A program made the position numbers and the translations under genes. A DNA stretch of 64,000 nucleotides from Candidatus Saccharimonadales bacterium (GTDB lineage Bacteria; Chloroflexota; Limnocylindria; P2-11E). Within the stretch, counting starts at the first letter, position 1. Each line of letters begins with the position of its first letter. Shown piece after piece: positions 37,788 through 46,690 of the stretch. Location of the stretch: NCBI GenBank assembly GCA_035493615.1, contig DATJHW010000082.1:766-64765 (forward strand), read 5' to 3'. The notes under the pieces are model-generated. The model saw only the letters and a program-made list of their open reading frames with translations. It searched no databases and was not told the origin of the DNA.

Positions 37788-38258
37788 CTAGTTCGGCTGA
37801 GAGTCCTTCTGGCGGTGGCGTTCGATCATCTCGAGCAGCTCGTTCACATCGAAGGGCTTGGCGATGTAGCCGGTCGCGCCGATCTCCTCGGCCCAGCGGC
37901 GCGCGCTCTCGGCGGCGGTCATCACGACGATCGGGTACGTGAGCGCCCGCTCGTGCAACCGCTTCGCGAACGCCCACCCGTCGAGGACCGGCATGCGCAT
38001 GTCGAGGAGGATCAGCGCGGGCGCGACATCATCGAGCGCTTCGAGCGCCTCGGCGCCGTTCGCCGCGGTGCGGACCGCGAGCCCCTCGCTCTCGAGGAAA
38101 TCGCGCAGCATCGCGAGGATCTCCGGATCGTCGTCGACGACGAGGATCGGCCGGGCGGCGACGGCCGCGTCGCCGACGCGGGCGCTCGAGCGCGCGGCTC
38201 GATCCGGCGGAGTCGGTCGATCCGGCGCGAGCGCCTGGAACGCGAGCGTGCTCGTCAA
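37788..38258 (-). CDS. Single-domain response regulator (receiver only)
   Basis: ORF 37788..38369, trimmed to TTG 38258, which forms a TTGA overlap with the upstream kinase stop. PILVVDDDPEIL...LILLDMRMPVLDG...PIVVMTAA...IAKPF. Confidence 0.8.
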   Translation of the reverse strand: MTSTLAFQALAPDRPTPPDRAARSSARVGDAAVAARPILVVDDDPEILAMLRDFLESEGLAVRTAANGAEALEALDDVAPALILLDMRMPVLDGWAFAKRLHERALTYPIVVMTAAESARRWAEEIGATGYIAKPFDVNELLEMIERHRQKDSQPN

Positions 38259-40093
38259 TTCAGCTTTCCTTCTCCGGCATCCGGCAGCGCGACGTGAAAG
38301 GTGCTGCCTTCGCCCACTCTGCTTTCCACCCAGATGCGGCCGCCATGCTCCTGCGCGATGCCGCGGCAAATGTACAGACCGAGACCGATCCCCGCGTAGC
38401 GCCGGGCATCGACGTTCGCCGCCCGGTGGAAGCGCTCGAAGACGAATGGCAGGTCCGTCGCCGGGATACCGATGCCGTGGTCCCGCACGCTGAGCCGGAT
38501 CGCCGTCATGTCGCGCCAGGCGTGCACTTCAACGGGACTGTCCTCGGCGCTGTACTTCAATCCGTTCTCGATGAGGTTGTCGACCAGCTGCTCGATCCGG
38601 CGCGGGTCGAACGTGCCGGGGAGCCGCTCCAGCGCATCGACGACGATCCGCTCCCGCTCGGGGCGTTGGCGCTCCGCAACCTGGCGGACGACGGCACCGA
38701 CGTCGATGAGCTCGCGGTGCACGTCGAGCTTGCCTTCCTCGATGCGCGACGCGTCCAACAGGTCCTCGACCAGCGCCGACAGGCGGCGGGCCTCTCTGGC
38801 GATCCGGGCGATGGCCGGCTGGTGCGCCGCGAGGGCGGGATCGCGGGCGAACCGCAGCTCGAGGATCTGGGCCTGGCCGAGCAACGTCGTGAGCGGGGTC
38901 TTGAGGTCGTGCGCGGCGGCCGAGACGAAATCCTCCTTGAGCTTCGCGGAGTCCTCGAGCGCGCGGACCCGGGCAGCCTCATCGATGAGCGCCCGGCTCT
39001 CGAGGACGACGGCGGCCTGATCGGCGAGCAGCTGCGCCAGCGCCAGGTCGTCGTTCGAGAACACCGGCTGGTGCGCAGCGAAGGCCTCGAGGACGCCGAT
39101 GCGGCGCGAGCCTGCGGTGATCGGCGCGATCAGCACGGGGCCGACGCGGGCCTGCCGGTAGTCGCTCGCATGCTCCGGGTGCGCCCGCGCGGCGTCGGCG
39201 AAGAACTCCGCCCGTTGGGATGCGAACACGCGCGACGCGAGATAGGGGCTGTCCTCGCGGACGATCCGCGGCAGGGCGCCCTGCCCGTCGTTGAACCGGA
39301 GCCCGCCGGCATCCGGGTCGTAGAGCCCGATGGCGGCCCGGGCGCCGAACGACTCTCCCGCTCCGCGCTCGAGCTCGCGGATGATCGCGTCGGTGGTGGG
39401 CAGCCGCGGGAGCGTCCCCGCGCGGGCGAGGAACGCGCGGAGCTCGGGCTCCTGCCAGTAGCGGCGGAGCTGCACCGGTGGCGCGAATCCGAGCAGCCAC
39501 GCTGCCGCGGCGAGCAGCGCGAGCAGCTGCGTGGCCCCGGACACCAACCCGGCCCAGCTTGGGGCCAGCGTGCTCCCTGCGGCGACGAGCACCGCGAGCC
39601 CGAGCAGGCCCATCCCGGCGGCGACGGCCTGCGTGCGGCGCTTCGTCACGCCCGACGAGCGCCGGGCCAGCTGGACGAAGCCGAACGCGACGTACATCGC
39701 GACGGCGCCGAAGTACACGATCAGGAAGAGCGTCGCGGCCGGGTCGATCGGCGAGCCGCTGGTGACGACGATGATCGCGGACGCGATCAGGCCGCCGAGC
39801 GTCGCCGCCCGCACCAGCAGGGGCACGTCGGCGAAGTCGTCGAGCAGCCGCAACATCAGATACGGCAGCGCCATGACCAGGATCGCGGCGATGGAGCTGG
39901 TCACGATGTTGCTCGCGAGGCCCGCGAGCTGCAGGGCCGGGACCTCGAGCACGGCGGCCGCGATCACGCCGAAGAAGACGGCGGTGTCGACGGCGGTGCG
40001 GGTCCGGTCACGCGAGGCGGCGAACGCCACGAGCACGAAGATGCCGACGAACAGCGCGTCGGTGAGGCCTTGAATGAGCTGGAGCGCCGTCAT
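38255..40093 (-). CDS. Sensor histidine kinase (polytopic N-terminus, GAF, HisKA, HATPase_c)
   Basis: About 6-7 TM helices, H-box FVSAAAHDLKTPLT, and G-boxes DHGIGIP / GIGLGLYICRGIAQEHGG. Confidence 0.9.
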   Translation of the reverse strand: MTALQLIQGLTDALFVGIFVLVAFAASRDRTRTAVDTAVFFGVIAAAVLEVPALQLAGLASNIVTSSIAAILVMALPYLMLRLLDDFADVPLLVRAATLGGLIASAIIVVTSGSPIDPAATLFLIVYFGAVAMYVAFGFVQLARRSSGVTKRRTQAVAAGMGLLGLAVLVAAGSTLAPSWAGLVSGATQLLALLAAAAWLLGFAPPVQLRRYWQEPELRAFLARAGTLPRLPTTDAIIRELERGAGESFGARAAIGLYDPDAGGLRFNDGQGALPRIVREDSPYLASRVFASQRAEFFADAARAHPEHASDYRQARVGPVLIAPITAGSRRIGVLEAFAAHQPVFSNDDLALAQLLADQAAVVLESRALIDEAARVRALEDSAKLKEDFVSAAAHDLKTPLTTLLGQAQILELRFARDPALAAHQPAIARIAREARRLSALVEDLLDASRIEEGKLDVHRELIDVGAVVRQVAERQRPERERIVVDALERLPGTFDPRRIEQLVDNLIENGLKYSAEDSPVEVHAWRDMTAIRLSVRDHGIGIPATDLPFVFERFHRAANVDARRYAGIGLGLYICRGIAQEHGGRIWVESRVGEGSTFHVALPDAGEGKLN

Positions 40094-43900: not shown

Positions 43901-44027
43901 TGGTACGGTGAGGAGGTCGCAGCACGGTCCCGATGACCGCGCGTCGCGATGCCGGGCACGGTTTGGGTGTGCCCGTCAGCTCGATCAAGACCCGTCCCAT
44001 GCCGGGCCACCCAGTGAAGGAGCCCGC

Positions 44028-44753
44028 ATGGCAACAGGCGTCACCGTCTCCGACCTCGACCAGAACCGTGTCCTCGCGCCACTCCCGGTGGCGGACCGGA
44101 CCCGGCTCGCGGCCGCGCTCGAGCCGTACCAGTCCGATCACCAGGTGCTGGTCGAGGCGGGGGGCGCGATCACCCACGCCTACTTCCCGTCGGTCGGCAT
44201 GATCTCGGTCGTCGCGGCGCTGAAGAACGGCAGGCGGGCGGAGGTCGCGACGGTCGGACGGGAGGGGATGGCCGGCCTACCGCTGTTCCTCGGTTCGAAG
44301 ACGAGCCTGTACGAGATCGTCTCGCAGGTCGCCGGCAAGGGGCTCCGCATGCCGGCGGCTGTGTTCACCGACGAGGTCACCCGCAGCCCGGCGTTCCGTG
44401 CCAGGCTGCTGCGGTACAGCGAGCTCCGGATGGCCATGCTCGGGCAGACGGCGGCGTGCAACGCGGCGCATCGGATCGGCCCCCGCCTCGCCCGCTGGCT
44501 GCTCCTCAGCCAGGATTCGGTCGACAGCGACCGCTTCGTCCTGACCCACGAGTTCCTCTCGCACATGCTGGGCGCCGAGCGTCCGAGCGTGACCCTCGCA
44601 GCCGGCGCGCTCCAGAAGCGCGACCTGATCACGTACCGCCGCGGCTCCGTCCAGGTCAAGGACCGCCCAGGCCTGGAGCGCGCGGCCTGCGAGTGCTACG
44701 GCATCGTGCGCCGGGAAGCGTCGCGCCTCATGGAGGACGGCCGCCCGGCCTGA
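44028..44753 (+). CDS. Crp/Fnr-family transcriptional regulator
   Basis: ORF 43908..44753, trimmed to ATG 44028 (MATGVTVSDLDQNR...). N-terminal cNMP-binding-like beta-barrel and C-terminal HTH (SHMLGAERPSVTLAAGALQKRDLI). Confidence 0.8.
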   Translation: MATGVTVSDLDQNRVLAPLPVADRTRLAAALEPYQSDHQVLVEAGGAITHAYFPSVGMISVVAALKNGRRAEVATVGREGMAGLPLFLGSKTSLYEIVSQVAGKGLRMPAAVFTDEVTRSPAFRARLLRYSELRMAMLGQTAACNAAHRIGPRLARWLLLSQDSVDSDRFVLTHEFLSHMLGAERPSVTLAAGALQKRDLITYRRGSVQVKDRPGLERAACECYGIVRREASRLMEDGRPA

Positions 44754-44860
44754 GCCCGGCTCGCCCGTTCCGTCAGGTGCCGGACAGACAGGCACCCCCC
44801 CCGGTGCAAACCTGCATGTAGGGCTGTCATGAGGCAGCGTCATGACCGGGGGGGTTCGAC

Positions 44861-45556
44861 GTGGTGATCAGCTGGACGCGGCTGCTCGGCACCGCGCGGG
44901 TGACGATCCACACCCAGGACCAGACGCTGGCGGACTCCGTCGCACTCGGCCTGCGCGAGCACGCCCAGCTGTCGGTGGACCGCGGCATCCACCGCCGCGA
45001 GGTGACCGTCCCCCACGTCGTCCTCATCGACCTCGACGGCGCCCACTCCGTCGAGACCCTCCGCGCGTACACCCAGGGAGCGGCACCCGTCCCGACCATC
45101 GCGCTGACCCGGACGGCCGAGCTTCAGCCCCGGCTCGCCGCCTACGCGAACGGCGCCGACGATGTCATCGCGATCCCGGTCACCGGGGCGGAGCTCGCGG
45201 CGCGGATCCGGGCGCTGCTCCGGCGGTCGTACGGGACGCGCCTCTCGTTCGTGCCCACGGTCAAGGTCGGCGACCTCGAGATCGACGTCATGGAGAATCG
45301 CGTGCGCTGCGGCGCCACGGTCCCCGCGCTCACGAACACCGAGCAGGCGATCCTGTTCGTGCTCGCCTCGAATGCCGGTCACACGGTGAGCCGCGAGATG
45401 ATCCGCCGAAGCGTGTGGGGCGCCTCCAATGCCCCGCCCAGCAACATCGTCGATCGACACGTCCGCTCGCTGCGCTCGAAGCTCGGCGACTCGTGGCGCG
45501 CACCCCGATACATCGCGACCGTGCGCCAGGGCGGGTACCGGCTGGTGGCGGCATGA
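44861..45556 (+). CDS. OmpR/PhoB-type DNA-binding regulator with an atypical (probably phosphorylation-independent) receiver domain
   Basis: C-terminal winged helix (LTNTEQAILFVLASNAGHTVSREMI...IVDRHVRSLRSKL...IATVRQGGYRL). The receiver keeps VVLIDLDG but lacks the N-terminal acidic pair (VTIHTQDQ) and the conserved Lys (DVIAIPV instead of DYLxKP). Confidence 0.8.
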   Translation: MVISWTRLLGTARVTIHTQDQTLADSVALGLREHAQLSVDRGIHRREVTVPHVVLIDLDGAHSVETLRAYTQGAAPVPTIALTRTAELQPRLAAYANGADDVIAIPVTGAELAARIRALLRRSYGTRLSFVPTVKVGDLEIDVMENRVRCGATVPALTNTEQAILFVLASNAGHTVSREMIRRSVWGASNAPPSNIVDRHVRSLRSKLGDSWRAPRYIATVRQGGYRLVAA

Positions 45557-45843
45557 GCGGCGACCCGATGAAGCTGGTCAAGTTCGTCTGCGTCGCGACG
45601 AGCCACGCCGCCGGCCGGAGCGACTCCGCGCTCACGATCCACCAGGGGATGTGGGCGTTCTGTCCGGCGGGCGGCGATCAGCGGGATCACGACTGGCAGC
45701 CGAGCGATGGCCTGCCGCTCGCCGACGCGATGCGGTTCAGCCCGCGCGAGGTGCCCGAGCCGCCGCAGAGCGCGACACCTGGCTCGGCGAAGCCCGCGCC
45801 TCCTCGAGCCCCGTCGGCCCGAGGGCGAGCGCGACCGGGCTGA
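45553..45843 (+). CDS. Small Cys/His-motif protein, unknown family (96 aa), paralog of 45912..46130
   Basis: ATG 45553 forms an ATGA overlap with the regulator stop. KLVKFVCVATSH...LTIHQGMWAFC...HDW...SDGLPL core plus a Pro-rich tail. High GC3. Confidence 0.6.
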   Translation: MSGDPMKLVKFVCVATSHAAGRSDSALTIHQGMWAFCPAGGDQRDHDWQPSDGLPLADAMRFSPREVPEPPQSATPGSAKPAPPRAPSARGRARPG

Positions 45844-45911
45844 CCGGGCGTCATCCGACCGGTAGACGTTCGCCGGTCGCGTCGTACCCTCATCGATCGG
45901 GGAGGCGGGGC

Positions 45912-46130
45912 ATGGCTGGTCCGCTGATCGAGTTCATCTGCGTCGCCGCGGCACACAAGCCGCATCACAGTGGCGAGCACGCCAGCACCGTGACCGTGCA
46001 CGAGGGCCGTTGGGCGTACTGCGACTCACCGGCGGAAGCCGGCCACGAGTGGGTCACGAGCGGCGGCATCCCGCTCGAGCTGCTGCGACATCGCCTTCGA
46101 ACGCCAGACCAGGCGACCCGGTCCGCGTAG
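45912..46130 (+). CDS. Small Cys/His-motif protein, unknown family (72 aa), paralog of 45553..45843
   Basis: ATG 45912 behind SD GGGGAGG. PLIEFICVAAAH...VTVHEGRWAYC...HEW...SGGIPL shares the core pattern. Confidence 0.6.
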   Translation: MAGPLIEFICVAAAHKPHHSGEHASTVTVHEGRWAYCDSPAEAGHEWVTSGGIPLELLRHRLRTPDQATRSA

Positions 46131-46270: not shown

Positions 46271-46690
46271 TTGAAGAACGAGATCCGCGAGCGACGTGGG
46301 CTTCGTGAGCGCGTGCTCGTCGTCGAAGATGACGCCGACACGCGCCGGATGCTCGTGTCCGCGATCGCCGACGAGGGGTACGAGCCGATCCCGGCGCTGG
46401 ACGGCCAGCACGCTCTACGCACGGCACTTGCCGTCGAGCCGAGCGCGATCGTGCTCGACCTCATGCTTCCCGAAGCGAGCGGCGAAGAGTTCGCGCGTGC
46501 GTACCACGAGCAGAGCCGAGCGGATGCTCCGATCGTCGTCGTGAGCGCGAAGCACGATGCGGCGCGCATCGGGAAGGCGATCGGCGCGGCCGCGGTCCTG
46601 CCGAAGCCGCTCGACATCGCTGACTTCGTCCGGAAGCTGCGATCGACCATCCGCGCGAGCCACGCGAGCCATCGGGCGGCCCCCGCCTAG
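46271..46690 (+). CDS. Single-domain response regulator (receiver only)
   Basis: TTG start behind SD GGGAGGA. RVLVVEDDADTRR...AIVLDLMLPEASG...PIVVVSAK...LPKPL. Confidence 0.85.
   Translation: MKNEIRERRGLRERVLVVEDDADTRRMLVSAIADEGYEPIPALDGQHALRTALAVEPSAIVLDLMLPEASGEEFARAYHEQSRADAPIVVVSAKHDAARIGKAIGAAAVLPKPLDIADFVRKLRSTIRASHASHRAAPA

Follow-up and report, generated by a model that had tools for sequence, protein, structure and literature searches.

According to a 2025 review (PMC12632262), it is largely unknown how pseudo-receiver regulators are switched on and off. In the OmpR/PhoB family such regulators are represented by GlnR of actinomycetes, ChxR of Chlamydia and HP1043 of Helicobacter (PMC12632262, PMC3960148, PMC5253667). 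Rem, an atypical OmpR-type regulator of Agrobacterium tumefaciens, has a partner of 76 residues, MirA, that binds to its DNA-binding domain and blocks activation (bioRxiv 10.1101/2021.06.24.449765; PMC12632262). The locus considered here also brings an atypical OmpR-type regulator (ARR) together with small proteins. It lies in a 64,000-nucleotide stretch ("the window") of contig DATJHW010000082.1, part of a metagenome-assembled genome (MAG; GenBank assembly GCA_035493615.1), where the ARR gene is followed by two open reading frames (ORF1 and ORF2) for small Cys/His proteins 1 and 2. Both ORFs are real genes under purifying selection. Their products represent a previously undescribed Cys/His family, without a match among curated families or solved structures, that is limited to one order of Candidatus Limnocylindria. 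The link of these small proteins to the regulator is real but not obligate.

A family of small Cys/His proteins

The two small proteins are paralogous (BLASTP E=2e-13, 34% identity), and the GC content at third codon positions (GC3) of their genes is high, 0.87 for small protein 1 and 0.82 for small protein 2. Long chance ORFs are common in DNA of 70% GC, and it might be supposed that these two are spurious frames of that kind. We give the supposition next to no credence, and the conservation data reject it: measured against orthologs at dS 0.6-1.3, dN/dS is 0.30 for small protein 1 as a whole and 0.22 for its core, and 0.18-0.31 for small protein 2; the same genome, a MAG of 2.44 Mb and 70% GC, holds seven paralogs; the core is confidently modelled; and a Cys, Cys, His, Trp signature is invariant across 492 clusters of homologs.

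These clusters come from a family profile search that covered 1.84 billion representatives, with clusters drawn at 50% identity. It returned 492 clusters at E<=1e-3, 108 of them at E<=1e-10, and nearly all matches are 63-120 residues long. A word-based search with small protein 2 found 37 close clusters (64-92% identity), every one of them unnamed or "hypothetical". Over 134 aligned sequences, C13, C37, H46 and W48 (in the numbering of small protein 1) are invariant, and H18, T28, W34 and A35 recur in 90% or more; the family motif reads [FY]-x-C-x4-H ... L-T-[IV]-x-x-G-x-W-A-[YF]-C-x7-9-H-x-W. Exactly two Cys are found in 80 of 102 members. The core is acidic (pI 5.7-5.9). The tail that follows H-x-W has a median length of 48 residues in the ARR-linked members, against 26, and the ARR-linked tails are basic and disordered. 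One protein (P0144) holds two tandem copies of the small Cys/His domain.

No family match was found when both small proteins were scanned against Pfam, NCBIfam and PHROGs, and a Pfam scan of 103 members one by one produced no family, zinc-binding models included, that more than one member matched. A profile search of the PDB with the family gave only chance antibody matches (E ~0.7). AlphaFold2 (AF2), supplied with the family alignment, predicts the same topology for both proteins: a strand, a short helix or turn, a beta-hairpin, a long strand and a C-terminal helix. In the model of small protein 1 the core, at about residues 11-60, has a predicted local confidence (pLDDT) of 88-93 and the Pro/Ala/Arg-rich tail is disordered; the model of small protein 2 has a mean pLDDT of 77. 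Foldseek found no match in the PDB for either model (best E 2.2 and 3.3). In the models, strand ends and the loops next to them carry the Cys and His residues. Most likely, the ~55-residue core of four strands and a helix uses the invariant Cys, Cys and His and the near-invariant first His to hold one Zn ion, and the Cys/His site may possibly be a redox or metal sensor.

Much of this had been anticipated in a first-pass annotation of the window, made from its letters and ORFs. The coordinates that it gave for the three genes, the ATGA overlap between the first two, the lengths of the two small ORFs and the Shine-Dalgarno (SD) sequence of ORF2 are all as it had claimed; that the two ORFs are paralogous and of high GC3, and that they belong to no recognised family, has also held up. 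The searches with a core profile and with Foldseek that it proposed have now been run, and what they return is homologs that keep the Cys/His pattern and no known domain. Its invariant C, H, H, C, H needs amendment: the invariant residues are the two Cys, the last His and two Trp, and the first His is kept in at least 90% of sequences, but the middle His, that of T-(I/V)-H, varies across the family.

The named relatives are Chloroflexota of Candidatus Limnocylindria. Within the GTDB family to which the window genome belongs, 57 of 61 genomes have members (all 20 of the high-quality ones), with 1-14 copies each. A sample of 201 genomes of the class placed members in 59 of 60 genomes of that family and in one genome of a sister family in the same order, and in none of the ~140 genomes of other orders; in a sample of 401 genomes of the phylum, members were confined to the same GTDB family (3/401). 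A related-locus search with a narrow family alignment gave four loci.

The atypical regulator and its candidate operator

The C-terminal domain of ARR is an ordinary winged helix (Pfam Trans_reg_C, PF00486, E=3.7e-21, residues 156-228). Its receiver falls below the Pfam cut-off (Response_reg, PF00072, E=0.004, 17.8 against 30.2 bits, with residues 53-117 aligning); the N-terminal domain nonetheless aligns to the receivers of KdpE and PrrA. Set against these and against canonical paralogs of the same genome, ARR keeps the acceptor Asp (D57) and the Thr/Ser position (T83), and has T18/Q19 in place of the Mg-binding acidic pair after beta-1 and I105 in place of the Lys. The first-pass annotation had described just such a regulator, with a normal winged helix and neither acidic pair nor Lys. 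By its sequence, ARR is a pseudo-receiver or atypical regulator as defined in PMC12632262, with the receiver recognisable and key phosphotransfer residues gone. The gene is under purifying selection (dN/dS 0.08).

The window ARR does not stand alone. With 29 relatives it forms a clade at 100/100 support, apart from nine canonical OmpR regulators of the same genome. In all 19 aligned sequences of the clade the Lys is missing (replaced by Val, Ile, Leu or Phe) and the Asp is kept, and most of the 19 are also without the acidic pair. Twelve genomes carry 25 genes of the clade, 0-7 each; it is a lineage-specific atypical clade, specific to Limnocylindria. The second ARR-clade regulator of the window genome (G000 contig C5:14962-16932) is followed by a gene for a 374-residue receiver-kinase-like protein, and neither a small Cys/His gene nor a TCATGA repeat was found there.

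The repeat in question, TCATGA-N7-TCATGA, occurs once in the window, against an expectation of 0.01. Related loci totalling 602 kb contain seven exact copies, six of them directly 5' of ARR genes from different subclades and the seventh directly 5' of a small protein 1 ortholog that lacks its regulator (L075). With up to two mismatches allowed, the repeat precedes 17 of 35 ARR genes; for other genes the figure is 7 of 429, and for family members 3 of 103. Its significance emerged from this clade-wide pattern search and not from simple alignment of the locus, in which the GTCATGA repeat is kept with one mismatch per copy in the relative L008, is not kept in L057 and is displaced in L040. TCATGA-N7-TCATGA is best read as a candidate operator of ARR itself. 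In a k-mer search upstream of all family members, SD-like words of the GGGGAGG type alone were enriched, and no other common motif was found. A scan for consensus promoters and terminators had no match.

Some further features of these upstream regions may be recorded. The whole genome has two exact repeat sites, where 0.18 would be expected. The one outside the window (G000 contig C99:10715-10734, there given as TCATGA-N8-TCATGA) lies ~80 nt upstream of a gene for a 240-residue predicted membrane protein, where the atypical regulator may have a second target. Where ARR genes come as tandem pairs, the upstream regulator carries a variant repeat, CATTAC-N7-TTCATC. In the window, the first ATG within the TCATGA repeat opens a 12-codon ORF (44829-44867; MRQRHDRGGSTW) whose TGA overlaps the region of the ARR GTG start, which may be incidental. 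Separate from the repeat is an element of ~20 nt, TCCGTCAGGTGCCGGACAGAC (44771-44793), that holds a GGTGCC-N9-GGCACC hairpin; it is kept upstream of the regulator in L008 and in part in L057.

Features of the locus are collected in Table 1. The ATG of ORF1 is at 45553 and the TGA stop of ARR at 45554-45556, the two making up the ATGA overlap, and 68 nt separate ORF1 from ORF2. There is no cognate kinase gene in the ARR operon: the gene that overlaps the 3' end of ARR is that of small protein 1. As the annotation had said, no kinase gene adjoins the regulator. The histidine kinase gene closest to ARR, at 38255-40093 on the minus strand, is 4.8 kb off, with five genes in between: tig, a dehydrogenase gene, tRNA-Leu, a LAGLIDADG-like ORF and the gene of the Crp-type regulator. 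The single-domain receiver listed in Table 1 probably belongs to the ARR module. Read from the sequence, the operon is probably autoregulated and would run from the candidate operator through ARR and small proteins 1 and 2 to, probably, that receiver.

Table 1. Features of the regulator-small protein locus, in window positions
Feature	Position	Strand	Remarks
Crp/Fnr-type regulator, context gene directly upstream	43908-44753	+	HTH_Crp_2 4e-13, cNMP_binding 2e-6
Candidate operator TCATGA-N7-TCATGA	44827-44845	not assigned	ends 16 nt before the GTG of ARR
ARR, atypical OmpR-type regulator	44861-45556	+	GTG start, 231 aa; pseudo-receiver and winged-helix DNA-binding domain
Small Cys/His protein 1 (ORF1)	45553-45843	+	96 aa; structured core ~residues 8-61 and disordered Pro/Ala/Arg-rich tail
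Shine-Dalgarno sequence GGGGAGG of small protein 2	45899-45905	+	6 nt before ATG; read from sequence
Small Cys/His protein 2 (ORF2)	45912-46130	+	72 aa; paralog of small protein 1
Canonical single-domain receiver	46271-46690	+	139 aa; Response_reg E=1.8e-14; 140 nt downstream of small protein 2

The surroundings are rich in cyclic-nucleotide and two-component signalling genes: Crp, receiver, metallo-beta-lactamase (MBL) hydrolase, GAF-HD and CHASE2 cyclase. The annotation had taken the stretch to be accessory-looking. That reading, of an accessory island, is rejected: the order Crp-regulator-95aa-72aa is syntenic in L008, where tig and the cyclase operon flank it too. In another relative, L009, a Crp gene is directly upstream of a small protein 2 ortholog. 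At L040:5167-6456 (G317) a Mutator-family transposase gene lies directly 5' of the orthologous regulator-small protein pair; the Crp gene therefore does not always adjoin the pair.

Gene neighbourhoods and candidate roles

The company that the family keeps was surveyed in 95 regions with 102 members, or 39 groups when clustered at 55% identity. No neighbour family is commoner than the receiver-type proteins, which account for 55 of the 380 neighbours within two genes and occur beside 12 of the 39 member groups, in a cluster that also took in a few receiver-less hydrolases by linkage; genome-wide, receivers make up ~2.2% of genes (55 per genome). Stand-alone receivers flank members in at least seven groups. 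For 19 of the 102 members the next gene upstream, on the same strand, is an ARR gene: this holds for 4 of 9 in the small protein 1 group, with the 4-nt overlap, for 10 of 14 in a group arranged regulator-regulator-member-NIPSNAP, and for 4 of 7 in a third group. One member of a sister group has the identical 4-nt overlap, and the ATGA is kept in five loci. The ARRs that adjoin members span at least three subclades and the adjoining members at least two well-separated clades.

Seen from the side of the regulator, 15 of the 25 ARR genes in the 12 genomes are within two genes of a family member: eight are directly 5' of one, five are the upstream gene of a tandem pair and two more are within 1 kb. 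For any one gene, a member would be the next neighbour by chance in ~0.3% of cases. A member directly downstream of ARR is enriched ~100-fold. Four to five of the ARR-member pairings are independent.

A number of facts nevertheless weigh against tying the family closely to ARR. The remaining 10 of the 25 ARR genes have no member nearby, and ~90% of family members do not adjoin ARR. Two of the sampled genomes, G325 (97% complete, with six members) and G428 (82% complete, with 14), have no ARR-clade gene at all. Five of the 10 small protein 1 orthologs within the genus have no ARR upstream, and half have a DinB/mycothiol-transferase-like gene there instead. Orthologous contexts are not independent, so that raw counts overstate the number of independent events, and the ARR tree and the member tree are only partly congruent. 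Unrelated contexts recur among members, namely grpE-dnaK-member, a divergent ECF (extracytoplasmic function) sigma gene, a divergent cold-shock gene, a CO-dehydrogenase/amidohydrolase and a Ser/Thr kinase neighbourhood. Finally, a natural fusion that speaks for a link to receivers, P0137 (L134:135-719), with the small Cys/His domain at residues 1-63 and a canonical receiver at 79-187, is a singleton from a contig of 1.6 kb and might be an artefact of assembly, and a search for further domain-receiver fusions found none.

Three of these arrangements may be described a little further. Eight loci have a tandem ARR pair with a family member and a NIPSNAP-domain gene behind it. In four loci, from four genomes, grpE, dnaK and a member follow one another on the same strand, the member after a gap of 135-153 nt; the slot after grpE-dnaK is often held by dnaJ or hspR. 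In three loci of the same genus from which the regulator is missing (L075 is one), the small protein 1 ortholog is downstream of a DinB_2/mycothiol-S-transferase-like gene, a neighbour that hints at thiol chemistry.

The proposals of the first-pass annotation about the locus as a unit survive in part. It had seen a three-gene module: the regulator and ORF1 do form a conserved core, but ORF2 is of a separate paralog lineage whose orthologs come after a Crp gene in one relative and after a receiver gene in another. It had also tied the small proteins to the regulator, and here the ATGA overlap, the spread over ARR subclades and the shared repeat speak for the tie and the predominance of members away from ARR against it. 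The co-occurrence check that it had suggested is similarly divided between the ARR genes that have a member within two genes and the two member-bearing genomes that have no ARR-clade gene.

What might the small proteins be doing? Our preference, held tentatively and at somewhat less than even confidence, is that they are Zn-binding partners or modulators of receiver-type regulators, encoded in the kinase slot of the operon. This reading is favoured because of that position, with its typical 4-nt overlap, because of the operon's own candidate operator, and because of the lineage-wide tie to receivers. The small proteins would serve regulators with receiver domains, either as modulators that bind them or as subunits for signal input. 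Small protein 1, its gene standing in place of the sensor kinase gene of a normal two-component operon, would be produced in fixed ratio with ARR by way of the ATGA overlap, would bind ARR and would set its dimerization or DNA binding, and through the Cys/His site this interaction would respond to metal or oxidant. What we infer in this account is the binding of metal, the physical contact between the proteins and which of them controls the other. The chief rival, which we think unlikely though well worth keeping in view, turns the relation around: the small proteins would be regulated output, ARR driving expression of a small protein whose work, in stress, metal or redox biology, lies elsewhere. 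Many stand-alone members are indeed beside stress genes (grpE-dnaK, a cold-shock protein, a hemerythrin with a GlsB-type protein, an HtrA-like protease, the DinB/mycothiol-transferase-like gene), members occur in genomes without any ARR and carry strong SD sequences, and in L075, where ARR is lost, the repeat is still directly upstream of the small protein 1 ortholog. As output, on the other hand, the small proteins would be oddly placed, an ATGA overlap in the kinase slot being typical of partner proteins; the neighbour enrichment covers receiver domains generally and not ARR alone; and the repeat is found in so few of the 103 member upstream regions that most members must lie outside an ARR regulon.

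Less likely again is a more ambitious version of the partner reading, in which the small proteins form a new class of subunit that feeds signals into pseudo-receiver regulators in place of the histidine kinase. A zinc-thiolate small protein, metal- or oxidant-sensitive and made 1:1 with the regulator, would bind the receiver-like or the DNA-binding domain, a chemical signal would alter binding at TCATGA-N7-TCATGA, and the family would have radiated to serve further receiver-domain proteins. If true, this would be a "two-component system without phosphate". It is also conceivable, at a distinctly low probability, that the family are small accessory transcription factors acting on RNA polymerase, sigma factors or nucleic acids, with neighbours that reflect shared regulons only. 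The WhiB-like (Wbl) proteins or RbpA of Actinobacteria would be functional analogues; like the Wbl proteins, the members are small and lineage-restricted and come in multiple copies (1-14 per genome), ECF sigma factors and GerE and Crp regulators are among the neighbours, and many members have basic, disordered tails. The core, however, is acidic, members have two Cys and not the four of an Fe-S cluster site, and neither Pfam, nor the PDB profile search, nor Foldseek detects a likeness in sequence or fold to any known transcription factor. Slightly less probable still is adjacency without functional meaning, an independent small metal-binding or redox protein having come to lie amid very dense signalling genes. 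For it speak 55 receiver domains in a genome of 2.4-3.0 Mb, a window that is itself rich in signalling genes and member contexts that are diverse overall; against it speak an enrichment of ~100-fold directly downstream of ARR, pairings that recur in several ARR subclades and a conserved 4-nt overlap.

Whichever of these is right, the locus is a compact, testable case for how pseudo-receiver regulators receive signals: it brings together a regulator clade without the phosphorylation residues, a conserved candidate operator and a co-translated small Cys/His protein in the place of the kinase, and orthologs with and without the regulator are on hand as natural controls. The family is a sizeable addition to the protein universe: at least 492 clusters and as many as 14 copies in one genome, without a database entry or a matching fold. 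It is also a signature of a widespread soil lineage of Chloroflexota, one with no cultured representative among the lineage records examined.

Comparison with known systems

ARR resembles GlnR, ChxR and HP1043 in its winged-helix output and its receiver-like fold minus catalytic residues, and all are orphans. It differs in forming a separate Limnocylindria clade, with 0-7 copies per genome and a TCATGA-N7-TCATGA repeat of its own, and in the recurrent small-protein gene in the kinase position; no such gene is reported for GlnR, ChxR or HP1043 in PMC12632262, PMC3960148 or PMC5253667. With GlnR it shares the retention of the Asp though the phosphorylation chemistry is lost.

Two kinds of small transcription-related protein offer analogies, without homology. 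The ZAS anti-sigma factors, RsrA and ChrR among them, are zinc-thiolate switches in which release of Zn on oxidation frees a transcription factor. Like them, small protein 1 is a small Cys/His protein encoded beside, and probably co-expressed with, the transcription factor that it would control. The ZAS motif H-x3-C-x2-C is missing from both small proteins and from the family consensus, where the pattern is C-x4-H ... C-x7-9-H-x-W, and the partner would be a response-regulator-type protein rather than a sigma factor. In the Wbl proteins of Actinobacteria, four Cys hold a [4Fe-4S] cluster and the protein binds region 4 of a sigma factor. The likeness lies in a lineage-restricted, multi-copy family of small Cys-containing proteins tied to transcription regulation; the present proteins combine two Cys with two His, are predicted to have a beta-rich fold and bear no similarity to Wbl.

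The closest functional precedent is Rem-MirA, in likeness of arrangement and with no claim of homology: in both cases a phosphorylation-independent regulator of the OmpR family comes with a small protein of ~70-100 residues. Unlike MirA, the family described here has a Cys/His core, is multi-copy, is found mostly away from such regulators and is known from its genes. The two also differ in how regulator and small protein are brought together: mirA is expressed under a different two-component system, whereas here the small gene overlaps the gene of its regulator by 4 nt.

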